From sequence record PZ379074.1: a stretch of 64,000 nucleotides of DNA; one strand, given 5' to 3'. The notes under the pieces were generated by a model that searched no databases, was not told the origin of the DNA, and was given only the letters and a program-made list of their open reading frames with translations. Positions 1 to 18,401 of the stretch are shown piece after piece. Position numbers and translations under genes: made by a program. This DNA comes from a phage. Each line of letters opens with the position of its first letter. Position 1 is the first letter of the stretch.

Positions 1-93
1 AAGAAATACACATTAATCATTTCCCTTGTCATCATCCTGGGGCTATTATATGTATTGGATATGGCATATTATTTGGCAGGGGTGAGTGGATGA
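1..93 (+). CDS. partial CDS, 3' end only (gene starts upstream of window); hydrophobic C-terminal segment
   Basis: Frame 1 open from base 1 to TGA at 91-93, encoding ...LIISLVIILGLLYVLDMAYYLAGVSG; stop overlaps next ATG (ATGA). Confidence 0.3.
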   Translation, partial: KKYTLIISLVIILGLLYVLDMAYYLAGVSG

Positions 94-380
94 ATATTGT
101 AATTCTTTATGGTGAAAATATCAGCGATGACGACATCGAAGTTGCCGTTGATGTTTACGGTATCGATGAGGTGAAACGTGTTGAAGAAATTAGTGGCGCA
201 AATCTCAATGAGATTGTCAAAGAAGCTGGCTGTCCTTCGGAAGAGATTCTGGTGGTTACTAACGATGACCTGTCTTCTATGGATCATTTGCGCCGCATCT
301 TCACCGATTGCCAATACCTTCATGCTGTTCAATCAGTAAACAAATTGAGAAAGGCATACGCCAACCAATTTCCTTGCTGA
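90..380 (+). CDS. hypothetical protein (96 aa)
   Basis: ORF with GGGGTGAGTGG Shine-Dalgarno-like sequence upstream; first of a co-directional array. Confidence 0.5.
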   Translation: MNIVILYGENISDDDIEVAVDVYGIDEVKRVEEISGANLNEIVKEAGCPSEEILVVTNDDLSSMDHLRRIFTDCQYLHAVQSVNKLRKAYANQFPC

Positions 381-516
381 TAGTTCACCAGTTATATTGC
401 TTTAAATTGAGTTTTACTATATTAATATACAACGCCAGAAATCTGGCGTTTATTTACCGCACCCTGAAAGGATATATCCATGCAACAATATAACAAAGCC
501 GTATCAGGAGGATTAA

Positions 517-2187
517 ATGTCAATTGAACATGACAATCTTCCAGAGGATACAGGTGATGAATTTGGTGCAATCTTTGACGAAATTCAAGACGCTGGTGTT
601 TCAGAAGAGATGCAAGCGGCAGAGCAGCAAGGCACCAGAGCTAAAATCAGCCTCCAGCATAAGGCTGTTGAGAAAGATGCAGAGCGCATGGAATGCTACG
701 GTGAAGAAGACTTGGTTGAAAGAGCACGCTTGCTCGCCTCACTTCAGGTAATCAAGTTCCCTCACTACAAGCCTACCAAAGATGACTTCGTTCTACAGGC
801 AGACCGGACGAGTGACATGAACCGTTATGCGGTTTTCGACGCGTTGTTTGATAAGGGAAGTGGCATTGTTCCATTCCCTCACAAAGATACTTTTCGTGGG
901 CGCTTAGTCGACCATCGCGGCGAAACATTCACTGACCGTACCTTGGAAGTCACAGAGATAGTTGCCGCTGTCGACGCAGCAGGACTGTCTAACCCAAACT
1001 CACGTCAGGTCGCTCAATCCTATAAGGAATGGGCCATGCGTTATCAGCGCGACGACCTGATGGACTTCTTCTACAAGAAGCTTCCTGAATGGGACGGTAC
1101 TGCGCGCATTGAAAAATACCTTATCGAGCTATTCCGACCGTTCGATACAGAGTTAAACCGACAAATCGGTGTGTATTTTTGGCTATCGCTCTACAACCGC
1201 CTGACAAACCCTGGATGTCAAGCGCCAATCTCCATCGCGCTCATCGGCGGCCAGAACGCAGGGAAGAGTTATTTTAGTAAGCTACTTTGCGAAGCTATTA
1301 TGAACGACCGCCACGCAACACCGATTCCGTTGAACTTGGCCGCGCAGAACTTCAACCCGTTCTTGCGAGCTATTACGGGTCGCTCAATTATCGCGAACGT
1401 TGGCGAGATGACAGGCTTTAAAAAGGCTGACATCGAAAACATGAAAGCATTCCTGACTAAGACGGAAGATGACCTGGACTTCAAATTTGAAGATACGCAG
1501 GTGAAACCACGCCAGTGGATTGCTATCATGGACGGCAACGAATACGCAGGCATGCAGCGTGACGACACAGGCAACCGTCGTGTGTACCCTATCTTTGTTG
1601 GCCAACTCGCTGACAAGGACGGGCAACCGAACTGGTCCAAAGACTTCCAAGCTGACCTTTCCACTTTGAAAGAAGACGTTTGGCAGTTGATGGCTGAGTG
1701 TGCTGCGTGGATGGAGAAGCACGGTGAAGCAGGTTACAACGCGTTTGTTGGTGAAACATCTCGCATGCTTACTGAGTTCAGTAAAAACGAAATGGAACGC
1801 GCTCGCGGCGTTATCCGTGATGAGATGGTGGACAACGACCTTGTTGAAGTCGTCATCACCGCGCCTTATGACCGACATCACAGCGGACGCTGGCACATCA
1901 CCAGTGGTGCTATTGCTATGGGATTCAGAGCGAAATGCGGCAAGTCGCCTTTCTCTCGTACCCTTGCGCCGCACATGTCAAAGCTTGGCTTTGAGCCTGC
2001 TACCTATCGCAACCAGCGCGGTTACTTTACGCCGCTGATTAAGAATGAAGCAGGGGAATACATTTCTGATTTGATGACTATCTTAGCGTATCTTATCCGC
2101 GACGAGTCTGACCCTGAAGATATTGAATTCTTGAAGAAGGTTATTGAACGCAAACGTTCTTTAGGAAGAGATAAGGATGAATTCTGA
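517..2187 (+). CDS. P-loop NTPase, primase/helicase-like (VirE/D5-type)
   Basis: 556 aa; Walker A-like GGQNAGKS; strong RBS AGGAGG 7 nt upstream of ATG; family assignment from motif only. Confidence 0.6.
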   Translation: MSIEHDNLPEDTGDEFGAIFDEIQDAGVSEEMQAAEQQGTRAKISLQHKAVEKDAERMECYGEEDLVERARLLASLQVIKFPHYKPTKDDFVLQADRTSDMNRYAVFDALFDKGSGIVPFPHKDTFRGRLVDHRGETFTDRTLEVTEIVAAVDAAGLSNPNSRQVAQSYKEWAMRYQRDDLMDFFYKKLPEWDGTARIEKYLIELFRPFDTELNRQIGVYFWLSLYNRLTNPGCQAPISIALIGGQNAGKSYFSKLLCEAIMNDRHATPIPLNLAAQNFNPFLRAITGRSIIANVGEMTGFKKADIENMKAFLTKTEDDLDFKFEDTQVKPRQWIAIMDGNEYAGMQRDDTGNRRVYPIFVGQLADKDGQPNWSKDFQADLSTLKEDVWQLMAECAAWMEKHGEAGYNAFVGETSRMLTEFSKNEMERARGVIRDEMVDNDLVEVVITAPYDRHHSGRWHITSGAIAMGFRAKCGKSPFSRTLAPHMSKLGFEPATYRNQRGYFTPLIKNEAGEYISDLMTILAYLIRDESDPEDIEFLKKVIERKRSLGRDKDEF

Positions 2188-2834
2188 TGAATAAAGCAAT
2201 CAACATCGCTAAATTCTTTCAACATCTCGGTGAACTGAACAAAGAGAGTGACGTTCACGGAGAAGAAATGAACCGGATGATTTCAACCGTGTTGCGTGGT
2301 TTTGGTTACGATAAGGACTCAATCACCTGTAAGCGCACGAAGCTTGTCGATGAGACATACCTTTACTACGTTGAATTGCGCGTAGGCAAAGATTTGATGA
2401 TCATCGACCCTAAATTGGAAGGGGCGCACTGTTTTGGCGCTCACCCTCGTGCGAGTGAATTCAAGGGTCGCGGTCGCAACCGACTCCAGAAGCTTGATGA
2501 TGCAGGCGACCTGAACATCTCGATGTTCCTCAAAGAGTTCCTTGCACTGCCGAAGGTTGCATCTTCAACGGGCCGTGATGACCTGTGCAAGATTGGATTC
2601 AGAACTAAAGATTTGCGCAATGCGCTACGCAAGAAGGGATTTGTGCCTTCTTATGATAACGTCGCCGCGCTGATGGCTTCCATGGAGGAAGCTGAAGCGA
2701 TGGATAAAGTGCGCGGCTATTTCCTGAATACAGGCTACACAATGTATGAGTGGCACACCAAAGGATTGACGGTCGCCGACTTCATCTATTCATTAGAGCA
2801 GAAGTATGTACGCAATATGCAGGCCACAGGATAA
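2187..2834 (+). CDS. hypothetical protein (215 aa)
   Basis: ATGA start/stop overlap with upstream gene. Confidence 0.55.
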   Translation: MNKAINIAKFFQHLGELNKESDVHGEEMNRMISTVLRGFGYDKDSITCKRTKLVDETYLYYVELRVGKDLMIIDPKLEGAHCFGAHPRASEFKGRGRNRLQKLDDAGDLNISMFLKEFLALPKVASSTGRDDLCKIGFRTKDLRNALRKKGFVPSYDNVAALMASMEEAEAMDKVRGYFLNTGYTMYEWHTKGLTVADFIYSLEQKYVRNMQATG

Positions 2835-2873
2835 TTATCATCAAAATATTTGCTTTTCTGACGAGGTGATATT

Positions 2874-3098
2874 ATGATTAATTTAGACAGGATTGAGTTA
2901 GCACTTAGTACCTTAATCAAATATTACCAGTTTGCTTTTAAGGCTAGTTTATTTGGCTTGTTCAATCCTCATCAAGCAGCAAAGGCGCGAAGCAATGCCA
3001 ACCGCCTGCGCTGCACTGGTATAGTCATCCACGACCGGATATTGACAGAGGGTAGATTCAGCCATGAATACACAAGGGAGAATAACAAAGCAACGTAG
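2874..3098 (+). CDS. hypothetical protein (74 aa)
   Basis: ORF with GAGGTG RBS. Confidence 0.45.
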   Translation: MINLDRIELALSTLIKYYQFAFKASLFGLFNPHQAAKARSNANRLRCTGIVIHDRILTEGRFSHEYTRENNKAT

Positions 3099-3273
3099 GG
3101 CTTTACAAGTCCTCATCCACTACCTGACACGCCTTTATCCTACGGCGCACGAGCAGAATCCATCAACTGGTCACCTGTTTAAGCGCCGTAACCTTTCGTT
3201 GAAAACATTCGCTTTAATCCAATACGACCGATACCTGGACGGGCGCTACTGCGGCCCGAAGGACTCACTATGA
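3064..3273 (+). CDS. hypothetical protein (69 aa)
   Basis: ORF overlapping upstream gene by 35 nt; basic protein. Confidence 0.35.
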   Translation: MNTQGRITKQRRALQVLIHYLTRLYPTAHEQNPSTGHLFKRRNLSLKTFALIQYDRYLDGRYCGPKDSL

Positions 3274-3548
3274 TTTCTACATACAAAGTGTTCTTTGTCA
3301 AGTGCACGTCATCGATTGATGACCAGTTTACTGCTGGAAAGAATTATCCCGTGATTTCTGAGTCAAGACTAGATATAATCTTGAACGATCATGAAATCTA
3401 TGAGCCGATGCCGGCAACTGCGTTTGATGTTATCGGTCACGTTCGGATTAAGACGAATGTTGAAACGATGCACGACCCGTTGTTCAAGAAGCAAATTAAG
3501 AATGCCATGCAAGACTTTTGCGCGGCTATGTTTAAATATTATAAGTGA
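3270..3548 (+). CDS. hypothetical protein (92 aa)
   Basis: ATGA overlap with upstream ORF; AAGGA RBS. Confidence 0.5.
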   Translation: MISTYKVFFVKCTSSIDDQFTAGKNYPVISESRLDIILNDHEIYEPMPATAFDVIGHVRIKTNVETMHDPLFKKQIKNAMQDFCAAMFKYYK

Positions 3549-3555
3549 GTTGAAG

Positions 3556-3777
3556 ATGAGCAAGAAAACTCTTAAGGCTGGGGACCGCATCCGTTGGATG
3601 TCAGGACAGAATATGCGCGCAGGCACCATCCTTGAGCTGGATCAATACCTTACTGATTCGCGCGGTCGCAATCACTATCGCGTTCGAATCGATACGGTAA
3701 AAGAAGATGACAAGTCACTGGTTGGTGAAGTAGTCATCGTTACTCCACGTCAAATTAAGGCGGCTTGTGAAGCATGA
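3556..3777 (+). CDS. hypothetical protein (73 aa)
   Basis: Start moved to internal ATG 3556 just after upstream stop (track ORF 3391..3777). Confidence 0.45.
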   Translation: MSKKTLKAGDRIRWMSGQNMRAGTILELDQYLTDSRGRNHYRVRIDTVKEDDKSLVGEVVIVTPRQIKAACEA

Positions 3778-6311: not shown

Positions 6312-6568
6312 ACAAGGGTCCGATGACTAAGTTGGCCGTTGCCGCGCGGAAGCTTCGACAAGCCGTTAATGGGTCGCGGCCCGTGGTGTTAACACTCGAC
6401 GACGCAAAGGCACTGGTAGAGCTACTCGACGAGCACAACCGACGCAAGAATCTGGAGAACACATTACGCTGGCGCGTTACTCCGAAAGGGCGGGAGAGCG
6501 AAAAGAAAGCTTACTTGCGGCGTAAACTAAGGTCGGTCGGCCTTCACGAAGAGGCGAAGAATATTTAA
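6308..6568 (+). CDS. hypothetical basic protein (86 aa)
   Basis: GTG start overlapping upstream stop (alternative ATG at 6323); followed by terminator-like hairpin. Confidence 0.45.
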   Translation: MNKGPMTKLAVAARKLRQAVNGSRPVVLTLDDAKALVELLDEHNRRKNLENTLRWRVTPKGRESEKKAYLRRKLRSVGLHEEAKNI

Positions 6569-6572
6569 TTCA

Positions 6573-6602
6573 AAAAGGTGAGCTATATGCTTGCCTTTTT
6601 AT
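6573..6602 (+). terminator. rho-independent terminator-like hairpin (copy 2 of duplicated cassette)
   Basis: AAAGGTGAGC-tatat-GCTTGCCTTT then TTATTT; same stem as 5320-5350. Confidence 0.45.
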
Positions 6603-6646
6603 TTGCCTGTATTATACTTAGTTCATCAAGCAAAGGAGATTTGATT

Positions 6647-6943
6647 ATGAGTTACGACGAAAGGTTTGGCAGAAGTGGATTGTTCCACGACGCTGTACAC
6701 AAAGACAGCAAAGATGTTGTCTGCGCATTCAAGGTTGATTCTTACGGTACGCTGAAACCTTTTAAGGTCGGCGAAACATACAAGCTGTTTCACGGCTGGT
6801 TGACGCGTCGCAACAACTTGCCTGATATGGAAGTCTGGTGGATAGAATATAAGGGCCAGGCCCATCGCTGCAAGGTTGTAGAGGTGCGCGGCGTCAAATA
6901 CTATCAATCGATTATCAGCGGTTTTGTGTTTAAGGGGATTTAA
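6647..6943 (+). CDS. hypothetical protein (98 aa); FKVGxTY paralog family
   Basis: Start set at ATG 6647 with AAGGAG RBS; shares FKVGETYKLF motif with 8267..8608 product. Confidence 0.5.
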   Translation: MSYDERFGRSGLFHDAVHKDSKDVVCAFKVDSYGTLKPFKVGETYKLFHGWLTRRNNLPDMEVWWIEYKGQAHRCKVVEVRGVKYYQSIISGFVFKGI

Positions 6944-6945
6944 TT

Positions 6946-7251
6946 ATGAGTACCGAAGCGATGAAGAAAAAGATTTTGAACGCTTTGCAAGAAGCTGTGA
7001 ACTGTGGTGCCATTAAAACCTTTACTGAAAGGCAAGTCGGTGAGGTGACGGTGCACGGATTCAATAATAACAAAAACGGAATTGCTGCCATAATGCTGTT
7101 GAAGAACAGCGATGACACATTCATCCTTTACGTCGGCGGATATGAGCTTATCGTTGATGATTTGTTCATCACTTGCGCTGACGGCCTTAACCCAATGTTA
7201 ACGTTCGAGCGGCGCGGCATCCGTGTTGCAACGTTTGGAGGGAAGCTATGA
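6946..7251 (+). CDS. hypothetical protein (101 aa)
   Basis: N-terminal motif LQEAVNCGAIKTF resembles N-terminus of 7758..8267 product. Confidence 0.5.
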   Translation: MSTEAMKKKILNALQEAVNCGAIKTFTERQVGEVTVHGFNNNKNGIAAIMLLKNSDDTFILYVGGYELIVDDLFITCADGLNPMLTFERRGIRVATFGGKL

Positions 7252-7541
7252 GACTAAGTCTAGCGCAAATTCAAACATTGTACCGGATGGAAGACGGAAC
7301 GCCATACATGCTGCGCGGCGACCGCAAGAAGGCTTATGAAAAGCGGCCATCACTGTTTCACGACATCAATGCGCCATCAATCCCTGTCTTATTCCGGTTG
7401 GGCCTTGTTGATTGGGCGGTGCCAGGGGAGAAAGACCCGACGCGCTATTCATCCGTGGTGATGACAAAAGCAGGTCGCGCGGCATTAAAAGAGATTAAAG
7501 AAAATATGGCTGGAGGTAAATATTATGACATCCAATCTTAA
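7248..7541 (+). CDS. hypothetical protein (97 aa)
   Basis: ATGA overlap. Confidence 0.5.
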   Translation: MRLSLAQIQTLYRMEDGTPYMLRGDRKKAYEKRPSLFHDINAPSIPVLFRLGLVDWAVPGEKDPTRYSSVVMTKAGRAALKEIKENMAGGKYYDIQS

Positions 7542-9571: not shown

Positions 9572-10104
9572 TGGGCGGCTTTTGGCGTAAAGCTAAATAC
9601 TCTAAAGACTTGCATTACTTCTTGGATAATGAAGGCATAAGTATATGTGGCAGGTACAGAAGGGATAATGAATCAGCGTCGCAAAGTAATAAGGCTGAAT
9701 GGTTACTCAAGGAAGAGTGCAAAGTTTGCCGCAAACGTTTTTGTGACAAAACCAGCATGACTGATTACATAAAGGAGCTTAGAAAAAGATGCAAAAGCCC
9801 GCAAGAGTTTGCCATAACTCTTTGGGATGATCACCCTGAGTTGAGAAGTGAATGGTTAAAGACTGATGCAATCAATTACATCTTCAAATCGAAATACAGG
9901 ACGACAGCAAGATATAAAATGGATGAAGCAGTAATTCAAAAGGTATTTTCTTATTGGAGGGATACAGTCGATATTGTGAAAATAAAGAAATACCAAAACG
10001 AAGTGCTGCTGGAATTGGAGAGGATTGGCTATAAAGTCACCAATAAAATGATAAAAGAAGAAATAAAAAGGAGAACGGAAAAGGGGTTGATGCCTAAGAT
10101 ATAG
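9568..10104 (+). CDS. hypothetical Lys-rich protein with Cys cluster (178 aa); AT-rich gene
   Basis: ATGA overlap; visibly lower GC than neighbours; C-x-n-CKVC-x-n-C cluster. Confidence 0.5.
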   Translation: MMGGFWRKAKYSKDLHYFLDNEGISICGRYRRDNESASQSNKAEWLLKEECKVCRKRFCDKTSMTDYIKELRKRCKSPQEFAITLWDDHPELRSEWLKTDAINYIFKSKYRTTARYKMDEAVIQKVFSYWRDTVDIVKIKKYQNEVLLELERIGYKVTNKMIKEEIKRRTEKGLMPKI

Positions 10105-10439
10105 TGAATAAACGAACACCGTTTACGTGTTTTGAAGAATGGAATGTGTACAATGGGTCGCTTTATGCGGCCTTTTGTTGTTTGGGTCGTGTTTTGCGAT
10201 GGAATAATTATGAGGTTGTGTTTTATTTATTAATTGTGCGGAAATATTTAGAAATATATTTCATAGGTCGTGTCTATTGGTCCGTGGTGTTTGTTAGGAC
10301 TTATCTATGGATTGAAATTTTAGTGTCGTGAAACGTGGTGTTTGAACACATTTGATACGCGTAAAATACGGCTAAAAATTAAGCGTATCATGGCTGCAGG
10401 CCGCGCCGTTACTGAGTTCCTATTTTCAAAAGTGGTACA

Positions 10440-10800
10440 CCCTTACGGATGATACGTCATGGTTTTTTATCCGTATCAGTGTACAGCCCTTGCCGCGCCT
10501 GGCCTGTACATTAATCTTACGGATGATACGGATAAAACTGGGCACCATTATATATATAATTTGAAAAATTAATTAACTCCATTTTAAAAACATTTAAATT
10601 ATTTTTTTCATATCCTCATACTTATGTTAATTTATATATTTAACGTATCATCCGTAAGATATAAGTAAAAACAAAGACTTGCGGCAATACGGATGATACG
10701 TTATGATACGCTTCGACCAGCCAGCAGCGGCTAAGTCATTGATTTGCATAACAAGCAGCGAAAGGGATGGATTTCTTTTATCCGTATCAAACAGTACACC
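10440..10800. repeat. iteron-like repeat cluster, 13-bp motif TACGGATGATACG / CGTATCATCCGTA, flanking an AT-rich tract
   Basis: Full copies at 10444-10456, 10518-10530, 10688-10700 (+) and 10644-10656 (rc), plus partial copies; AT-rich tract 10545-10640. Confidence 0.7.
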
Positions 10801-10939
10801 ACGCACCACGGTCCGTTATCCATTCAGCACTATGATTTGTGTACGTTTATAGCCATAATGAACATCAATCTGCACTTGAATATAATGTCCATCCATTGTA
10901 TAATTCACACTATTAATTTGCACTATGGGATTTTGCACT

Positions 10940-11413
10940 ATGAGTCAAGATTATGTAGCGATGCCTGAAGACTTTGAAGACCCGCGATTTGCAGAGCACA
11001 ATCAGGCTTTATTCGATGAGTTCATTGACCTTGTTATTCAGGGCCATGACATGCGCGCAGCTTTTGCACTAGTATTTGGAATGGAAGTTGCAACGGATAA
11101 CTACACTGGCCAGCGAATCCTTTGCGCGCAACGCAATCCATACTACAAGATGCGCTTCAAAAAGCGTATGGAAGAGATGCCACTCAAGGATTTGTGGAGC
11201 GTAAAAGGTGCAATTCACAATTTGGTCAAGCTTGTGCGTGATCCAGAAGTCGCGGCGTCAGCCAAACTTAATGCTATTCGTGAACTGAATATCATCTACG
11301 GCATCACGATGATTGATGAAAACGGCAATAGTAAAATGGGCCGTTCCATGGACGATTTCTACAAGGATTTTGGAGAGGCGGCCAAAGAAGGTGAGCAATT
11401 CTCCCGCCACTAG
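10940..11413 (+). CDS. hypothetical protein (157 aa); speculative small-terminase/DNA-binding candidate
   Basis: ORF flanked on both sides by the ATTTGCACTAT array; alternative start ATG 10925; no motif recognised. Confidence 0.5.
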   Translation: MSQDYVAMPEDFEDPRFAEHNQALFDEFIDLVIQGHDMRAAFALVFGMEVATDNYTGQRILCAQRNPYYKMRFKKRMEEMPLKDLWSVKGAIHNLVKLVRDPEVAASAKLNAIRELNIIYGITMIDENGNSKMGRSMDDFYKDFGEAAKEGEQFSRH

Positions 11414-11432
11414 CCAATTTGCACTATAAAAC

Positions 11433-11466
11433 GGCCCTAGAACACATTTTCTCCACTTCTAGGGCC
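11433..11466 (+). other. hairpin downstream of 10940..11413 (weak terminator candidate)
   Basis: GGCCCTAGAA ... TTCTAGGGCC 10-bp inverted repeat with 14-nt loop; no U-tract. Confidence 0.3.
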
Positions 11467-11841
11467 ATCGGTAATACGACGGGGAAGGTTACAACCATAA
11501 ACGCGTTATAAAGTGTATTATTATAAGTCATCTTTTAGTCACTTTCCGTAACAATTTACGACCTTCAACCGTCCAATCGAACGACTCCACCAGCAGATTT
11601 GCACTATAACCTAAGACTACCCGACCTTTCTCGTTATCGACCCGCCAGCAAGTCTCGAATAGCATCTTATTTGCACTATTAACTATCGCCGCAACTCGCG
11701 TAGGATAAGCGCAATTTGCACTATGGTCATAAAGGGATAAGGTGCGACCACTTCCGATGGACAACGTAGCGATGAGAATGAGCGTATTCATAAGCCACCA
11801 ATTTGCACTATGAAAAGCGACCCCGAAGGGCCGCCATTCTA

Positions 11842-12468
11842 TTAGATAATCTGGAAGGTGTAGGACTTGTTGCCGAACTCAAAGTTCAAGCGCCCAGCTT
11901 CCTTAAGCTTCATGCGGAAGCGAATGTGTTTGCTATCCGGCAAGCCCAGCGCGGCGAACGCTACGCGGACCGATTTGAACTCGCCTACACCCTCGACCAT
12001 GACACCGTTACGGGTGAGACGCTTTTGCGCCACTTCCTTATTATCCCAGCTTTTTGCAATACCTTCGCTATTCGAACGGCGATGGGAAGGAGTTCCATTT
12101 TGCACTACGCAATTTGCACTATCGTTTAAACCGCTCTTAACGAAGGCTTCATATTCTTCGTCGGTCATCGCGTCGAGTTCTTCCTGGGTCGGCTCAGCCT
12201 TTTTAACGACCGCACGCGCCTTATGCGTTTTTACATCGCTGGACACTTCCTCGCGCGGCTTCGCGTCGGGAATGGGCGATTCGTTGGACGGCTCATCGAG
12301 CGCGTTTAAGGACTCGATTAACGCGATTACGCGAGTCTCGGCGGTCCGGCGGTCCGCGAATTTCTTAATCGGCTTCGAACCGGAATTTGCATTATAAAAT
12401 GCAACGAGGTCGGCGGTCTTAGTTGCGATAACGTCGCCGCTAGTAGAAAAGCGATTTAAGCTAACCAT
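11842..12468 (-). CDS. hypothetical protein (208 aa); member of TTATTATG-start module
   Basis: Same RBS context AGGAGTTTATTATGG as 12549..12863; 3' third overlaps the ATTTGCACTAT repeats. Confidence 0.45.
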   Translation of the reverse strand: MVSLNRFSTSGDVIATKTADLVAFYNANSGSKPIKKFADRRTAETRVIALIESLNALDEPSNESPIPDAKPREEVSSDVKTHKARAVVKKAEPTQEELDAMTDEEYEAFVKSGLNDSANCVVQNGTPSHRRSNSEGIAKSWDNKEVAQKRLTRNGVMVEGVGEFKSVRVAFAALGLPDSKHIRFRMKLKEAGRLNFEFGNKSYTFQII

Positions 12469-12548
12469 AATAAACTCCTATTTGTTAGGGCGCTAGGCGC
12501 GAAAGAATTTTATTAAAGCGCCGCGCACGACGCTCTAAAAATCCTCTC

Positions 12549-12863
12549 TTACTCTTCGTCGTCTTCGATTAATTCGAGGGCGAAGGCGTAAGCTTTGCTA
12601 TCGTAATTAACTAAAACGGCGAGTTCGAACTCGTTAATAAACGCCGTTTTACCGCATAAATTTAATTCCGCATCGACTTCGAAGAATCCGTTTTCGTCGC
12701 GCTCTAAGCGAGAAGCAGCGAGTTGCTCGATTACCGTCGCGTCGTTAATTTCTTCGCCTAAGCGAACGCCGGAGAATTTAGCGAGAATTTCGCCGTAAGT
12801 AAGCGTAACGCCCTGGACTTCGGCGGTTGCGTTTTCGAGGGTAAAGCGGGTAACGATAGCCAT
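12549..12863 (-). CDS. small highly acidic protein (104 aa)
   Basis: Preceded by sigma70-like promoter, conserved 5'UTR hairpin and AGGAGTTTATTATG start context; ends ...LELIEDDEE. Confidence 0.6.
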   Translation of the reverse strand: MAIVTRFTLENATAEVQGVTLTYGEILAKFSGVRLGEEINDATVIEQLAASRLERDENGFFEVDAELNLCGKTAFINEFELAVLVNYDSKAYAFALELIEDDEE

Positions 12864-12931
12864 AATAAACTCCTAGTTGGGAGAGGCGTTAACGACCTAT
12901 TCGTTAACTCATCCCGTCCCGATATGAGTAC

Positions 12932-12959
12932 ATTATAATATAGTGTAGAAAAAAGTAAA
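12932..12959 (-). promoter_or_regulatory. sigma70-like promoter (TTTACT-16-TATAAT) for 12863<-12549
   Basis: Reverse complement reads cTTTACT(16 nt)TATAAT; whole cassette near-identical to 13403-13430. Confidence 0.55.
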
Positions 12960-13003
12960 GCACTTTTTCGATAAAAATGCGATAAATTATTTTATCTTTT
13001 TTC

Positions 13004-13031
13004 TTTACTTCTTCGTACACTCGCGTATACT
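13004..13031 (+). promoter_or_regulatory. sigma70-like promoter (TTTACT-16-TATACT) for 13088..13390
   Basis: cTTTACTtcttcgtacactcgcgTATACT, back-to-back with divergent promoter at 12932-12959. Confidence 0.55.
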
Positions 13032-13087
13032 TGTTTATATCGAGACGGGCGATGTCCCTTTCTTCTACTAGCATCGGGAGCTTTATT

Positions 13088-13390
13088 ATGACTACTTTAA
13101 TCTCTTCCATCCTTACTTACGACGAAGACCGCTTAACCGTTCGCTCTCTTATCGCCGCCGTTAACGCGGAACTAGAATCTAGCGCCATTAAGGTCCGCGC
13201 GGTCGCCTTCATCGGCCTTTCCTTCGACGATATGAAGTATGCCGAACGTAGCGCTATCCGCTTCGCGAAGACCGACGACGAAGCCGTTACCCTTATCGAG
13301 ACGGTTACGCCGCGCGACGAAGCGTTAATTATCGTCGAGTATATCGACGTAGAAGGCGATAAGGCTTATAAATATTTTATCGCAGAATAA
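13088..13390 (+). CDS. small acidic protein (100 aa)
   Basis: Start set at ATG 13088 within GGGAGCTTTATTATG context (track ORF 13031..13390 starts earlier). Confidence 0.55.
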   Translation: MTTLISSILTYDEDRLTVRSLIAAVNAELESSAIKVRAVAFIGLSFDDMKYAERSAIRFAKTDDEAVTLIETVTPRDEALIIVEYIDVEGDKAYKYFIAE

Positions 13391-13402
13391 CGAAAAAGTG
13401 CT

Positions 13403-13430
13403 TTACTTCTTCGTACACTAAGACTATAAT
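13403..13430 (+). promoter_or_regulatory. sigma70-like promoter (TTTACT-16-TATAAT) for 13498..13788
   Basis: gtgcTTTACTtcttcgtacactaagacTATAATg; followed by hairpin GGTAGCGA-atagg-TCGCTACC and AGGAGATTATTATG. Confidence 0.55.
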
Positions 13431-13497
13431 GTTTTATATCGAGAGGGGATGAGGTAGCGAATAGGTCGCTACCCTCCCGACCAACTAGGAGATTATT

Positions 13498-13788
13498 ATG
13501 ATTACTTTAGCCGCTATCCGTAACGCTCGCGCCGAAACTTCCGAAAACTCTAACGTATTTGGCGAAAAACTTAAAAACGTTTATCTCTTTAACGTAGATG
13601 CGACTATCGAGGAGCTTCATAGTCCTATCGATTTTAGCGAATTTACGGAACTCGAAGAGGAAGATATTTCTACTTTCCGCGTTACTATCGAAGGCAAGGT
13701 TTATTTTGCTACGGAGTTCGGCGGCGAATATCTCGCGGTATCCGAAGGCGAAGGCCGTTACTCTTTCTTTAAAATCGTCTCCTTATAA
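13498..13788 (+). CDS. small acidic protein (96 aa)
   Basis: Own promoter cassette; followed by terminator. Confidence 0.6.
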   Translation: MITLAAIRNARAETSENSNVFGEKLKNVYLFNVDATIEELHSPIDFSEFTELEEEDISTFRVTIEGKVYFATEFGGEYLAVSEGEGRYSFFKIVSL

Positions 13789-13807
13789 TACCCTTCCGTT
13801 ACTAATA

Positions 13808-13833
13808 GGCCGCGCTTAGTCGCGGCTTTTCTT
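13808..13833 (+). terminator. rho-independent terminator
   Basis: GCCGCG-cttagt-CGCGGC followed by TTTTCTT, 20 nt after stop of 13498..13788. Confidence 0.55.
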
Positions 13834-14096
13834 CGTCCCTATCCCGATGCGCGTCTACGCGAAAACTCCTTTATCCTTCCCTTCGTCGTCGCATAATCTT
13901 CTTCGAGATGCTCCTTAGTTCGCATAACAGGTATTACGTTAAATGGAGAACATCGCGTAAGTCCTTGTTTTATATAGACACCTATATCGGACCGTTAGGG
14001 CGGGTCGCGTAAGTCGTTGTTTTATAAAGGCGCAAAACTTTCCCTTCGTTCCGAACTAAAACGAGGAATATGCCGACCCTTCGTCCGAAAATAGTA

Positions 14097-14470
14097 TGCA
14101 TGCGAAATTACATGCATCTAGAATAATCCCCACCGATATTATCCTACACGCAATCATTCGCTTTCGAATCATTATGCTTCATATTATTATGCATCGAATC
14201 ATTCTCTTTCGAATTGTAACGCTGGAAACTGTAACGGCGATTGATTATTGCGTTCGTGTGGTTTTTAGGGCATGGGTCTTTTGGTGCGTTTTGCTACTTG
14301 ATGAAATTTGCGGTACACTAATCAAAATACGACACATTTGGTCCACTAACTTTTCAAAGAAAAAGTCCTAGACAGTACCGTACTATTTTGCACCCACAGG
14401 AAATTTGCAGTACACTCCTGCGCGGCAGGCAAAATAAAGGGCCGCACTAAGCGACCCACTAAGCGACCCA
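14097..14470. repeat. non-coding repeat-rich region (short direct and inverted repeats)
   Basis: ATGCATG...CATGCAT inverted repeat near 14097; AATCATTC(G/T)CTTTCGAAT direct repeats near 14149 and 14201; (G/C)AGTACACT motifs near 14303 and 14400; tandem CACTAAGCGACCCA x2 at about 14445-14472. Confidence 0.5.
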
Positions 14471-14499
14471 CGATTCACGGTTAAAGCAACATCCACCCA

Positions 14500-14880
14500 C
14501 TATTCACTCTTATGGGCATCACCAAAGCCATCCGCAATCTGGCTGATCAATGATTCAATGGACACAGTTTTACCAATTGATCGAGCGGTAATAGCAAGCA
14601 TATTATCAATCAAACCACGATTGACTGCATATGTTCCAGGTTTTGACTCATCTTCAGAACAACCAAAAAGCTGGTCGCGCAGACTTTCAAGAGAACGCTC
14701 AATATTTTCCAACTTCTCTTCTAAATCGGATTGGCGACGTAAAACCCATGTCAAGTCACGGTTGCCAACTTCCAATCCATCAGAATAGCAAGGTGGAGCG
14801 TCAATTTTGATGCTGGAACCAAAAGCAATGCCGCTGCCTTTAGTATGTGTGTGGCTCATAGAATCATTTTTATTTGACAT
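14500..14880 (-). CDS. hypothetical protein (126 aa)
   Basis: Start set at internal ATG (MSNKND...) with AAAGG RBS; track ORF extends to 14946. Confidence 0.45.
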   Translation of the reverse strand: MSNKNDSMSHTHTKGSGIAFGSSIKIDAPPCYSDGLEVGNRDLTWVLRRQSDLEEKLENIERSLESLRDQLFGCSEDESKPGTYAVNRGLIDNMLAITARSIGKTVSIESLISQIADGFGDAHKSE

Positions 14881-14977
14881 ATCATTACCTTTAATATTTG
14901 GGTGATTAATAATAACTATAATAAAGCCGCATGGCGCGCCATTCAAATCGGTTTATTAATTGTAACGATTGGATTCA

Positions 14978-15172
14978 TCAATCGATACCAACTGAGCCGA
15001 TGTGCTGAAAGAATTCTGAATAAACTTCCTTCCAGTACTTGCGCGCAGCTTTCTGGGCTTGCCCTTTGCGCTTGTAGCTTTTACCTTGGAAAATGAAACG
15101 GTCGTTTGCTGCGTTATACTCCACCACACCTTCCAGCCATTGTAAGAATGCTACTGATTCATTTTTATTCAT
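14978..15172 (-). CDS. hypothetical protein (64 aa)
   Basis: ORF in minus-strand block. Confidence 0.4.
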   Translation of the reverse strand: MNKNESVAFLQWLEGVVEYNAANDRFIFQGKSYKRKGQAQKAARKYWKEVYSEFFQHIGSVGID

Positions 15173-15179
15173 GTTAACC

Positions 15180-15575
15180 TCAATATTTTAATAAGAAAGT
15201 ACCCAACCAACTTTCCTCAATCTCGCGGCCAGTAGCCACACGGTCGGTCTTGGCTATGGGTCTGGATTCGCCGCAGGGCAATCCGTCTTGTAGTTGTGTA
15301 CTATTGCCAATTCTCACCAGAACCTTTCCATCAGGGTCGATATAAGCGCGACAACCCATGATTTCGAGTCGTTGTAGACACTGGCGAATCGTTTTCAGCT
15401 TCTCACCGGACCGGATAGAGCGCGGTCGCGACCGCTGACCGTTTTTATTCACTGTACGCTTGAAAACCGGAATATCATTGGTGCGTTGCGGCTTGGGTCG
15501 GTAATAAGCCTCTTCGCCAGGAGTTGCACCTGGTGTCAGTTCGCGCTTAAGCGCCTTTTCAATATCAATGATCAT
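15180..15575 (-). CDS. hypothetical basic protein (131 aa)
   Basis: Start set at internal ATG (MIIDIEK...); track ORF extends to 15647 with Cys-rich leader. Confidence 0.4.
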   Translation of the reverse strand: MIIDIEKALKRELTPGATPGEEAYYRPKPQRTNDIPVFKRTVNKNGQRSRPRSIRSGEKLKTIRQCLQRLEIMGCRAYIDPDGKVLVRIGNSTQLQDGLPCGESRPIAKTDRVATGREIEESWLGTFLLKY

Positions 15576-15668
15576 AATTATGCTGCAGCAGCGTGAATGA
15601 TTGCATAAACAATTCCTAACATGGCGACAACACAAACCGTGCCCCAAAATGCAAAACGTCGTGATTCT

Positions 15669-15956
15669 TTATCCATTGGACCCTTCTCCACTGTTGATAT
15701 TATCCGAAATCAAAGTCGGAATTTCATCTTGAGTCCTTACCTTGTAGTGCGAAGGCATCTTACTTTCCAACAATGCCTGTTCAGCTTCGCCTTTTGTTTC
15801 AAACAAAGGAATGCACCAATCAACTGCATTTCCTTGCTCGTCGCCATTAACAGCTTTCAAGAATACAAGACGCTTGTCTGCAGGGTCGATGCCGCAAATT
15901 AAGTATTTAGGCAGCGCCTTTGCTTTTTGGGCCTTATCAATATCTTCAAATTTCAT
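15669..15956 (-). CDS. hypothetical protein (95 aa)
   Basis: ORF immediately downstream of tail fiber gene, same strand. Confidence 0.45.
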   Translation of the reverse strand: MKFEDIDKAQKAKALPKYLICGIDPADKRLVFLKAVNGDEQGNAVDWCIPLFETKGEAEQALLESKMPSHYKVRTQDEIPTLISDNINSGEGSNG

Positions 15957-16037
15957 AAATCACCTCACTTGTTAACGTATAATGAGTATAACTTAATATC
16001 GCATAAAGTAAAGGCGCTTTTCAGCGCCTTGAGTGAA

Positions 16038-18401
16038 TTATTTCGCTGCTTTTAGCGCGGCTATTTCTGCCTCTAGTGACTCGACCTTTTTCATCAACTC
16101 CTGCACCACGTGCATCGTATCCAAAAGCATAGGTGTGGTGTCAAGTTGCTTTTGCTCAACTTCGACACCTTCACTTGGATAGAATTTAATCGTTTTGACA
16201 TACAACGGGTCAATAGTCTCTGCCTGTTGAGCAATAATCCCTCTTCTCACCCTTTCCTTTTCATCATTGTTGTAGATGAAAGTTACATACTCCAGCAATG
16301 AAAGGTTGCTCCATGCTTTTTCTACCGTTCCTGGTTGTATGTCATGCTTCAAATTCTCATCAGAGATGGCATTCTTCTGAAGAGTGAAGAAACTGTCAGA
16401 GCCTGGAACGGATACTGAAAAGAATACGTCCTCTACGTTAGGCTGGATTTGCATCTTTGTTTGATACTTTGCATCATCATCACCAGAAGCAATCCACGTA
16501 GCTTGCGCAAAACTTCCATTGTTGTTGTGAATCATGCCATGGTGAACAGTAGTTGCGTATCCTGTATTAACAGATTGACTACCACTGATAAGGCTGTTGA
16601 AGCCATAGTTCTGACCAAGACCCTGACGAACCATCGAGAAGGTGCCTGACTTTGATCCTGTTTCAGCCCACGACATTAACGTTCCGTACCGTGCCGCAAA
16701 TCGGTCAGACCATAATAGACCGTCATCAGTCAAGCTGATGTCTTTTTCTTTACCTGCAGTGACGTTTTTTACTGATAACTGGGTGGAATATGACCCACCC
16801 ATCGTTGCTGATGTGTAAACCGTTCCTTGCGCTTCGATGGCAGTTCCAATCTTGTATTCAACGCTTACTTTCCCTGATTCAACTCTCGTTCCGTCTATCG
16901 GTCTGGTGGCGTCACCGTTGATAACACTCCAAGACGTTTTCGCGGCAACAAATCCGCCCGATGCACGAATCACCCAAACGCCGATGAAGTTGCGCGGCAA
17001 AATGTTATCCGAAACGCCATATCTGCCATAAGTGCCATTCGAATAACTTGCCCTAAAGTTCAAGGTGTTTAAACGGCCTGGTGTTGCACCAGTACCGCCT
17101 GGTATCGTTTCACCAGCCCCTTGAGGGTATAAGTCATTGTTTGTGTAAAATGCGCCTCTTACGGCTGTACCGAAAATTTGCGCGTAAGTCCCTTGAGACA
17201 CGCCTGCCGCAGAACCTGCAATGTCTGGCGCAGCCGCTTCATAAATTGTCCCGTCATTGGAAGATGTTCCGCCATCACCTCGCCCAAAAAGCTCCTTGAT
17301 TGATCCTGTCTGAACACCGTTTCTGTCCGGCACACGGAATGTAGTTGTGCCATTACCCAAAGAATATTTACCACGCTTTTGGGCGTCAGCAAGCCAGTCA
17401 GCATCCGCAATAGGTGATAACATTTGCGCGTATGCCCAAAGTTCAGGCCAGTCAGCGCGATTCAGCAATTGTCCGTCTGCAACGACTTCATACGGTTGAA
17501 TATATGCACGACTGTCTCGCAAGTGGAAGTCGCCGACGCCATAGTTCATAACACCGTTCATGCTTGGGCCAACGGTGCCTGTGTTCACTAAGTTCTCAAC
17601 CCAACGCTTGGTTGCAGCATCATAATCGTTTACCGGATCACCAGCAAGCGGAGTCGACCCTTGTGGACGAATATTCAACCAAGCTTGAGCATTGTCTGCT
17701 GATCCTGTGCCGCCCATGGAAGTTGGGACGATGCTTTGATCAGCAACAGGGCCAAATCCAAATGCATCTTTCATTCCTTGAATGGTTGTCTGCCCCGTTC
17801 CGCCATTTACAATTGGAATCGTGCTTTGCGTACTATACATCTGCACCCAATCCGACCAGGATGATGAGCCAGCATTGTATAGCCTTTGGTATATGGCGTT
17901 GATCCAATAAGGCGTATATCTTTGGACGCAACTTTCTCCTGCGACGCCAGTCTTGTAGACTTCAAGAATGCCAGCTTGTGAAACTGGATAGTTCAAAGCC
18001 GATGATGCGCCAGCATTTGCTGATTGATGATATTGGCCAAACCATGAACCAGTCAAAGCATTGAGATTTATTCCGTTAGGAATCTCCCCAAAGTTTCGGA
18101 CGGTGCCCGTCAAAGTCGCGGCAGTAGTTCGAATGGAAAGCATATCGCCAGCCGCCCATGCACGCGCTGCAGTTCCTTCTTGTGCACGCTGCACGGTCAG
18201 AACGTTTCCAACCACGGCTGTTACTGTGACGATTTCGAATTGGAGGCCTGTTGCAGCGTCGACGATTGTCGCCACTACACGCTCGTTTGCGCCCAAGGTC
18301 GGAAAGCCCGACCCTGAGCGAATTGTGATGGTGGTGTCTGAAGTCGTGGTTGGCTGAGCCAGTGCGACCTCAAAGTTGTTTTTGAATATTAGCCTTGGCA
18401 T
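16038..18401 (-). CDS. tail fiber / tailspike with C-terminal intramolecular chaperone (peptidase S74-like) domain
   Basis: 787 aa, Gly/Ser/Thr/Asn-rich body; C-terminus has SDENLK (Ser...Lys, S74-like) and coiled-coil tail. Confidence 0.7.
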   Translation of the reverse strand: MPRLIFKNNFEVALAQPTTTSDTTITIRSGSGFPTLGANERVVATIVDAATGLQFEIVTVTAVVGNVLTVQRAQEGTAARAWAAGDMLSIRTTAATLTGTVRNFGEIPNGINLNALTGSWFGQYHQSANAGASSALNYPVSQAGILEVYKTGVAGESCVQRYTPYWINAIYQRLYNAGSSSWSDWVQMYSTQSTIPIVNGGTGQTTIQGMKDAFGFGPVADQSIVPTSMGGTGSADNAQAWLNIRPQGSTPLAGDPVNDYDAATKRWVENLVNTGTVGPSMNGVMNYGVGDFHLRDSRAYIQPYEVVADGQLLNRADWPELWAYAQMLSPIADADWLADAQKRGKYSLGNGTTTFRVPDRNGVQTGSIKELFGRGDGGTSSNDGTIYEAAAPDIAGSAAGVSQGTYAQIFGTAVRGAFYTNNDLYPQGAGETIPGGTGATPGRLNTLNFRASYSNGTYGRYGVSDNILPRNFIGVWVIRASGGFVAAKTSWSVINGDATRPIDGTRVESGKVSVEYKIGTAIEAQGTVYTSATMGGSYSTQLSVKNVTAGKEKDISLTDDGLLWSDRFAARYGTLMSWAETGSKSGTFSMVRQGLGQNYGFNSLISGSQSVNTGYATTVHHGMIHNNNGSFAQATWIASGDDDAKYQTKMQIQPNVEDVFFSVSVPGSDSFFTLQKNAISDENLKHDIQPGTVEKAWSNLSLLEYVTFIYNNDEKERVRRGIIAQQAETIDPLYVKTIKFYPSEGVEVEQKQLDTTPMLLDTMHVVQELMKKVESLEAEIAALKAAK

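Follow-up and report, generated by a model that had tools for sequence, protein, structure and literature searches.

What kind of locus occupies positions 12469-13835 of the phage sequence record PZ379074.1, and why is its DNA so different in composition from the DNA on either side? The stretch analysed, referred to here as the window, is 64,000 nucleotides long, and in this part of it a few small genes are served by three host-type promoters and are written in DNA from which CA and its complement TG have very largely been lost. The locus is most likely an immediate-early module of a myophage that bears a direct terminal repeat (DTR), with its DNA under double-strand selection against CA:TG steps, a reading to which a probability of roughly 0.55 is given. 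A preliminary description, which saw here early host-takeover or anti-restriction genes, is largely right in its observations, and its interpretation is plausible but unproven; it missed the two most informative facts, that the module lies in the DTR and that the compositional anomaly is one of dinucleotides. The elements on which the argument turns are as follows.

12050..14150, no strand: the CA/TG-depleted island, with a core at 12200-14000 (from 300-nt windows, codon junctions and protein-conditioned counts)
10581..14362, no strand: the DTR, 3.8 kb (from mapping of the repeat of phage WFC and the PhageTerm DTR of phage Mansfield; one collapsed copy in the assembly)
11842..12468, minus strand: g208, 208 residues, basic, isoelectric point (pI) 8.9, PHROG 4730 (function not assigned), E 1.9e-89
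12549..12863, minus strand: g104, 104 residues, pI 4.07, net charge -15, C-terminus EDDEE (open reading frame and charge computation)
13088..13390, plus strand: g100, 100 residues, pI 4.47, net charge -8 (open reading frame and charge computation)
13498..13788, plus strand: g96, 96 residues, pI 4.40, net charge -10 (open reading frame and charge computation)

Over positions 11842-13900 the observed/expected ratio of CA/TG is 0.35, against 1.19 in the rest of the window. Both CG (2.0 against 1.08) and TA (1.17 against 0.66) are enriched, and the G+C content is ordinary at 0.46-0.47. Across the 64 kb, 300-nt windows fall below 0.6 only at about 12050-14150, where the minimum is 0.14, the lowest value elsewhere being 0.64; no comparable island was found in the remainder of the genome of the close relative Bas98. 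The distinct composition proposed in the preliminary description is thus borne out on computing, and more sharply than was claimed. Its 'cg-rich' codon choice is correct in that CG is raised, but this is one face of a CA/TG depletion in which TA goes up as well.

The depletion runs across codon boundaries. The third base before codons that begin with G is C in 106 cases and T in 11, and before A-initial codons it is T in 55 and C in 8 (odds ratio 66, p 2e-26), an association that is reversed in 47.7 kb of other genes (odds ratio 0.45). Since the third base flips with the first base of the next codon, the effect is not one of codon preference. Leucine is encoded as CTG or TTG in none of 32 cases within the island, the codons ACA, TCA and CCA are unused, and CA is as rare as TG on either sense strand. 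Of the 32 trinucleotide pairs, those with CA/TG in them, eight in number, take the eight lowest places (0.14-0.48). When the protein sequence is held fixed, g104, g100 and g96 contain 8, 7 and 6 CA/TG steps, against 38.7, 37.2 and 30.6 (standard deviation about 4) expected from the codon usage of the phage itself. The theoretical minima for these three proteins, at 4, 2 and 2, are far below those of ordinary genes of the phage (7-19), which argues that the amino-acid content has been shaped too, with few Gln, His, Cys, Trp and Met residues.

Non-coding DNA shares the pattern. The -35 element TTTACT of the promoters is the consensus TTGACA minus its TG and CA, and a manual count gives a roughly three-fold depletion both in the untranscribed spacer between the promoters and in the non-coding DNA past the right terminator. 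Taken together, the strand symmetry, the codon-junction effect and the depletion of untranscribed DNA are read as selection acting on double-stranded DNA. The left edge of the island is a gradient within g208, whose N-terminal half holds 14 steps against 32 expected and whose C-terminal half is near normal (36 against 45). The right boundary is sharp.

The position of the island can be read from relatives. Matches to window 11800-14100 are found in 29 phage records at 80-99% identity (28 of the 29 at 90% or more), every one of them an Escherichia or Shigella myophage of the genus Wifcevirus, including Bas98 (98.0%) and WFC (97.7%), and the window itself belongs to a Wifcevirus, a myophage of E. 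coli. The WFC counterpart, at 1221-3522, is present twice within the WFC record, and comparison of the ends of that record reveals an exact 3784-bp repeat, the first base of which corresponds to window position 10581 and the last to about 14362. The counterpart in Mansfield lies inside a PhageTerm-predicted DTR at 1-3673. The module at 12469-13835 occupies the right half of the DTR; being in a terminal repeat, it would be present in two copies per virion, one of which lies about 0.3-2.4 kb from the right physical end of the DNA. The four genes are annotated as hypothetical in every record.

The island is found in every Wifcevirus examined, regardless of the alleles and extra genes that occupy the locus, and it extends beyond the genus. 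L017, an uncultured contig of 72.5 kb whose g208 is 62% identical to that of the window, has, at 40% protein identity, an island with ratios of 0.19-0.33 over about 1.7 kb, three rearranged TTTACT cassettes and the same terminator, and the island stops about 300 nt short of sequence homologous to the WFC DTR boundary. In a scan of viral contigs with a g208 profile, which covered 40 loci, islands were confined to Wifcevirus, Pantoea phage Kyle and Serratia phage MTx. Kyle has a DTR of 3603 bp with an island at about 1650-3300, and the four TTTACT/TATAAT promoters there serve genes for homologues of g208 and g104 (the latter of 94 residues, net charge -18) and for two further small proteins. In MTx the DTR is 3566 bp (PhageTerm), the island is at about 1500-3300 and a single promoter, 230 bp from the DTR boundary and pointing inward, drives a g208 paralogue, a 104-residue acidic protein and a protein of the g104 family (114 residues, net charge -18). 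The edge of the island is about 250-350 bp from the right DTR boundary in all four lineages. The island follows the right end of the DTR and not g208. MTx (L062) itself has two genes of the g208 family, a short one at 2714-3220 inside the DTR island and one of 344 residues at 6483-7517 outside it; the longer has an N-terminal extension and an ordinary composition. No comparable island was found in the T5 terminal repeat, the SPO1 terminal redundancy, the T7 early region, PB1 or the retrieved sequence of the Spe5P4 locus (Myosmarvirus, L007); MTx, likewise a Myosmarvirus, does have one in its DTR.

The island has been kept at 30-43% protein identity and across three host genera, over which unconstrained synonymous sites would have reverted to the genomic norm. 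Polymorphism among ten Wifcevirus genomes agrees with this. Of the sites in the island at which a transition could create CA/TG, 9.2% show one, compared with 16.7% of those at which a transition could destroy it (odds ratio 0.51, p 0.016), whereas the flanks display the reverse bias (odds ratio 1.55, p 0.015). The under-representation of creating transitions indicates a selection that is ongoing and weak per site. The exclusion of CA:TG is strand-symmetric, bound to position and evolutionarily maintained. A search of the literature for dinucleotide depletion in phage early regions gave nothing relevant. The exclusion zone and its link to a DTR end stand out among the results, and no prior description of either was found in the searchable literature.

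The transcription signals of the module, and the non-coding DNA that surrounds them, are these.

12932..12959, minus strand: promoter A, TTTACT, 16-nt spacer, TATAAT (core and hexamer match)
13004..13031, plus strand: promoter B, TTTACT, 16-nt spacer, TATACT (core and hexamer match)
13402..13430, plus strand: promoter C, TTTACT, 17-nt spacer, TATAAT (core and hexamer match)
12888..12908, minus strand: hairpin of leader A, 8 bp, GUUAACGA-AUAGG-UCGUUAAC (folding and covariation)
13453..13473, plus strand: hairpin of leader C, 8 bp, GGUAGCGA-AUAGG-UCGCUACC (folding and covariation)
12469..12548, minus strand: structured intergenic region between g104 and g208, folding energy -32.1 kcal/mol, z -3.2, with a second copy of the ribosome-binding site (RBS) and start context
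11811..11835, minus strand: intrinsic terminator of the leftward unit, GCGGCCC-UUCG-GGGUCGC then UUUUCA (annotated in WFC at 1238-1255)
13807..13836, plus strand: intrinsic terminator of the rightward units (sequence and WFC annotation; conserved in L017)
13837..14362, no strand: non-coding tail of the DTR, 526 bp, with several repeats, the first 200-300 nt still CA/TG-poor

Divergent sigma-70-like promoters and terminators can be recognised by reading the DNA, and they delimit three transcription units: a leftward one from promoter A through g104 and g208 to a terminator, a rightward one from promoter B through g100, and a second rightward one from promoter C through g96 to a terminator. A 19-nt promoter core, CTTTACTTNTTNNTACACT, has three exact matches, at 12942-12960 (minus), 13003-13021 (plus) and 13401-13419 (plus). 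There is no exact copy elsewhere in the 64 kb, where the three other matches carry three mismatches each (0.5 expected by chance). A relaxed pattern adds promoters at 16012 (minus) and 49221 (minus), both TTTACT-N17-TATACT, to give five in the window, three of them in the module, against 0.76 by chance. The two additional promoters lie outside the DTR and head leftward operons of ordinary composition, one directly behind a terminator hairpin; in Bas98 a small CA/TG dip (0.54) occurs near the promoter that matches 49221.

Cassettes A and C are inverted copies of each other, 82% identical over a 65-nt leader and 88% over a 33-nt promoter stretch, and a 37-nt repeat (12448-12484 and 12843-12879) is 81% identical. 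The three host sigma-70-type cassettes of promoter, leader and RBS arose through direct and inverted duplication. The three near-identical cassettes of the preliminary description are therefore two duplicates, A and C, and a third that has the exact core but, beyond the promoter, shares with them the first transcribed bases and the RBS only; the leader of B differs and folds no better than shuffled sequence (z +1.0). The hexamers stand as described at all three promoters, but the 16-nt spacer assigned to each holds for A and B and not for C. Likewise, the start context said to be common to four genes, AGGAGNTTATTATG, is found at g208, g104 and g96 only, and g100 carries GGGAGCTTTATTATG. Four small acidic products become three, g208 being larger and basic.

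What was said of compensatory change in the leader hairpins holds up. The stems of A and C differ at two pairs, with both sides changed each time, and phage SP13 has a G-U intermediate at one of these; in L017 the loop GAAUAG and the stem register are kept, with a third pair flipped. Across an alignment of five distinct sequences, which is a small sample, 97.5% of cells are paired and both sides change in three of the eight pairs. The observed score was reached by 6 of 500 shuffles, and slid registers pair at 18-51%. A scan of 10000-16500 gave no Rfam match to the leader hairpins at E <= 1. The hairpins may act to stabilise the 5' end or as a processing site.

The proteins fall into a conserved member and a changing set of companions. 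Homologues of g208 occur in 356 phage records, mostly Pseudomonas Pbunavirus, making it a core gene of a wider clade, and in PB1 the homologue ORF77 is the last member of a small-gene operon. Mass spectrometry of a vB_Eco4M-7 lysate preparation, in which non-structural proteins were also present, detected the ortholog vB_Eco4M-7_19 and none of the small acidic proteins (PMC7048862). In a word-index search that covered 5.8 billion proteins, the small proteins turned up solely in close relatives, on phage contigs of Wifcevirus size, g100 being confined to contigs of that size (about 68 kb). An exhaustive HMMER search added one distant g104 homologue, of 105 residues in L017 (43% identical, E 3e-15), through which the 94-residue Kyle and 114-residue MTx proteins join the g104 family. 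In Mansfield, AV128 and SP13 the g104 slot is taken by a 94-residue acidic protein paralogous to g96 (hhalign probability 93.6%, E 2e-7). In vB_Eco4M-7 the slot is empty and cassette A drives g208 directly, and in AV128 and SP13 the module is enlarged by further small genes of the same composition. The small acidic proteins are an exchangeable cargo beside the conserved basic protein g208. In Pseudomonas phage Ocp-2 the g208 homologue (L021, 2180-2791) is labelled 'deaminated base DNA N-glycosylase', a name that is treated as unverified; Pfam, NCBIfam and PDB sequence searches on this label gave only a sub-threshold match to a 36-residue DRHyd model.

Several observations weigh against an immediate-early module under double-strand selection. 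The early timing would follow from promoter type and position. The promoters at 16012 and 49221 drive operons of ordinary composition, which argues that early transcription by the host polymerase need not in itself require the loss of CA/TG, and the left 1.5 kb of the DTR is without depletion. Within the island 67 polymorphisms that create CA/TG were seen, a frequency that speaks against a nuclease for which every site is lethal and favours a density-dependent cost. EcoP1I sites (AGACC) are present in the island in both orientations, at 12415 (minus), 13126 (plus) and 13269 (plus), as is one of the three EcoKI sites of the window, AACGAAAAAGTGC at 13389-13401, which falls within the conserved upstream element of promoter C. 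Palindromes of 6 bp have an observed/expected ratio of 0.52 in the island and 0.79 elsewhere (blocks 0.58-1.11), which is no clear difference, with about equal absolute density, and together with the EcoKI and EcoP1I sites this means that simple avoidance of restriction sites is no explanation. The proteins themselves offer little help: Pfam, PHROGs and NCBIfam gave zero matches for the four apart from PHROG 4730 for g208, PDB profile searches with g96, g100, g104 and g208 gave no relevant match, the AlphaFold models are too poor to compare (pLDDT, the predicted local distance difference test, 63.9 for g96 and 44.9 for g104) and Foldseek against PDB and BFVD, run on these poor models, returned nothing but a WFH ortholog.

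Some particular causes of the depletion were considered and set aside. Palindrome avoidance is genome-wide and not specific to the island, and known restriction-modification (RM) sites are not specifically missing from it. GATC is absent from the islands of the window and L017 (z -5.3), yet it is present in the islands of other isolates, and longer stretches without GATC exist in the genome. The DTR has no EcoRI or EcoRV site, but fewer than one of each would be expected there.

On the reading of an early module under double-strand selection, the small acidic proteins would most likely act on host functions or defences during the first minutes of infection. Early timing is suggested by the promoter type, the position in the DTR and the precedents of T5, SPO1 and T7. 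The module may be the first DNA in the cell, which would have to stay intact and transcribable while an activity that acts on DNA, be it a defence of the host or an attack by the phage on host DNA, is operating; the resulting constraint against CA:TG would override codon preference, bias amino-acid content and shape the promoters. The distance of about 250-350 bp between the island and the right DNA end in four lineages, along with the inward promoter of MTx, leads to a model in which the right end probably enters first and the island is the first 2 kb. Candidates for the cause of the selection are a low-specificity double-stranded DNA enzyme of host or phage, acting while only this segment is inside, a zone kept free of modification, or some physical feature of the DNA itself.

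A more ambitious form of the proposal, offered tentatively and as something that may well prove wrong, is that in one clade of DTR myophages of Enterobacterales, made up of Wifcevirus, Kylevirus, Myosmarvirus and the uncultured lineage, the leading DNA constitutes a 'dinucleotide exclusion zone', in which about 2 kb has been purged of CA:TG in response to a double-stranded DNA-acting activity of very low specificity. Such an activity, which could belong to a host defence or be turned by the phage on host DNA during a first-step transfer like that of T5, would act while only the leading segment is inside the cell, and the early genes would survive through the absence of targets and not through modification or inhibitors. 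If true, this would be a new kind of self-protection, and its signature could serve to locate leading ends and early modules.

Among the rival explanations, the one that survives best, though it is an unlikely account of the locus, sees in the acidic proteins anti-restriction DNA mimics akin to Ocr and ArdA, with the composition as something incidental. T7 Ocr has a pI of 4.05 and a net charge of -28; the window proteins come near it with charges of -8 to -15, and relatives reach -23 at a pI of about 4.05. Their genes stand in an early position behind strong promoters, and a variable cargo slot is typical of arms-race genes. Moreover, Wifceviruses resist EcoKI, EcoCFT_I, EcoRI, EcoRV and EcoCFT_II with no known mechanism, and are sensitive only to EcoP1_I among the BASEL RM systems (PMC11990801). 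There is therefore an anti-restriction function somewhere in Wifcevirus genomes. The Ocr/ArdA likeness suggested in the preliminary description has, however, found no support: no resemblance to a solved structure, be it Ocr, ArdA or another, emerged from Pfam, PHROGs or PDB sequence searches, tblastn with T7 Ocr against the window gave nothing, and the predicted models are unusable. Mimics of the Ocr type block type I enzymes and leave EcoRI and EcoRV unaffected, several isolates do without the g104 gene or have another in its slot, and the CA/TG depletion is left unexplained. That EcoP1I sites lie in the island of phages whose one sensitivity is to EcoP1_I is no more than a lead.

Selection at the level of mRNA, for instance escape from MazF, which cuts ACA, or a tuning of translation speed or mRNA stability, is improbable. 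The genes are presumably very highly expressed, the leader hairpins are conserved and ACA/TGT is strongly depleted (0.22), all of which would suit it. Against it, the depletion of CA matches that of UG on either sense strand, and the effect is no weaker across codon junctions than within codons and is symmetric under reverse complementation. The untranscribed spacer and the DNA after the terminator are depleted too (by manual count), and UA, the classic labile step in RNA, is enriched.

A similarly slim chance attaches to a modification-free zone, in which the phage would modify a motif containing CA/TG, which would explain its RM resistance, and the motif would have been lost where the host polymerase reads immediately. 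The breadth of that resistance and a depletion that affects both strands, promoters included, are in keeping with this idea. Yet no DNA-modification genes are recognisable in the phage, in which only ThyX, a PNKP-type phosphatase, an SDR and a MazG-like protein were seen, the EcoRI and EcoRV sites that it resists contain no CA/TG, and operons elsewhere behind promoters of the same type are undepleted. The BASEL table lists no tRNA genes.

The least credible alternative, a relic of horizontal transfer that retains a donor signature without current constraint, can point to the sharp right boundary and to proteins without relatives beyond this phage clade, but it is opposed by the persistence of the island at 30-43% protein identity with synonymous sites saturated, by unrelated alleles and accessory genes that share its composition, by a boundary inside a vertically inherited core gene, by CA/TG counts that adjoin the theoretical minimum, by polymorphisms biased against the creation of CA/TG and by the fact that we know of no natural genome with a CA/TG observed/expected ratio near 0.2-0.35.

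Some further features of the region are placed on record. Between the divergent promoters, at 12965-12992, are TCGATAAAAAT and GCGATAAATT, which are similar to TCGATAAATT, the motif of high affinity for H-NS, but may instead be UP-like elements or regulator sites. Nine copies of ATTTGCACTAT with at most one mismatch lie at 10916-12395, within the left half of the DTR and always on the plus strand (1.8 expected by chance), and there is none elsewhere in the 64 kb. The copies surround a gene annotated as terminase small subunit in Mansfield, so they could be bound by terminase, act as pac-like repeats or be iterons. At 10442-10790, across the left DTR boundary at 10581, TACGGATGATACG and TGATACGGATAAAA recur in a cluster of direct and inverted copies, and this cluster could be a terminase cleavage or recognition region. 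Around the right boundary, the stretch at 13953-14416 contains 25-nt repeats at 13953 and 14005, 43-nt repeats at 14136-14223 and GAAATTTGC(G/A)GTACACT on either side of the boundary, at 14303-14319 and 14400-14416; this layout is reminiscent of the T5 injection-stop region.

An early module under double-strand selection would matter in several respects. It would give a likely immediate-early module to an understudied phage group that has been reported as unusually fast-replicating and restriction-resistant, with the g104 family and g208 as concrete candidate genes. Phages of three host genera have all but lost one dinucleotide pair over 2 kb, which is a clear and quantifiable mark of some selective agent. 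One member of the group, vB_Eco4M-7, has been assembled from synthetic fragments (PMC11074155).

Among known systems, the pre-early region of T5 resembles the locus in having host-type promoters in a long direct terminal repeat with a divergent pair in mid-repeat and, past a terminator, non-coding DNA rich in repeats where the terminal repeat reaches its inner boundary. The T5 repeat is larger, at 10.2 kb against 3.8 kb, and, unlike the island here, has a CA/TG ratio of about 0.9 and a mild CpG excess. In T5 (L016, 1-14000) the CpG ratio is about 1.0-1.8 inside the repeat and 0.46-0.87 just beyond it, a milder step at the same kind of boundary. Searches with tblastn of T5 A1, A2, dmp, T5.014 and T5.015 against the window yielded short chance matches (best E 0.015, outside the module). 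Two-step transfer is a feature of T5, and the likeness here is one of layout, drawn from sequence alone.

The terminal redundancy of SPO1 is likewise a cluster of small genes without known fold, and its takeover genes, as reportedly described by Stewart et al. in 1998, each have strong host-type early promoters and strong ribosome-binding sites. A comparable arrangement is found here, where three cassettes serve four genes, and in Kyle with its four promoters. SPO1 differs in its host and its promoter class, with no sequence relationship found, and its CA/TG ratio is about 1.1 overall (minimum 0.53 per 300 nt), without depletion. The early region of T7 also has inward host-polymerase promoters a few hundred bp from the entering end, a feature clearest in MTx, and the first T7 products include a small, very acidic protein, as may be the case here; T7 differs in lacking a long DTR-borne module and a depletion of CA/TG.

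With respect to composition, the avoidance of restriction sites is similar in that words in DNA are selected and not proteins, but here a whole dinucleotide class has been removed from a defined 2-kb segment. In vertebrate RNA viruses, the suppression of CpG and UpA under ZAP and RNase L is a selection on dinucleotides that overrides codon choice. The present island is its mirror image, as CG and TA rise while CA/TG falls, and it is found in DNA, locally, in a virus of bacteria.

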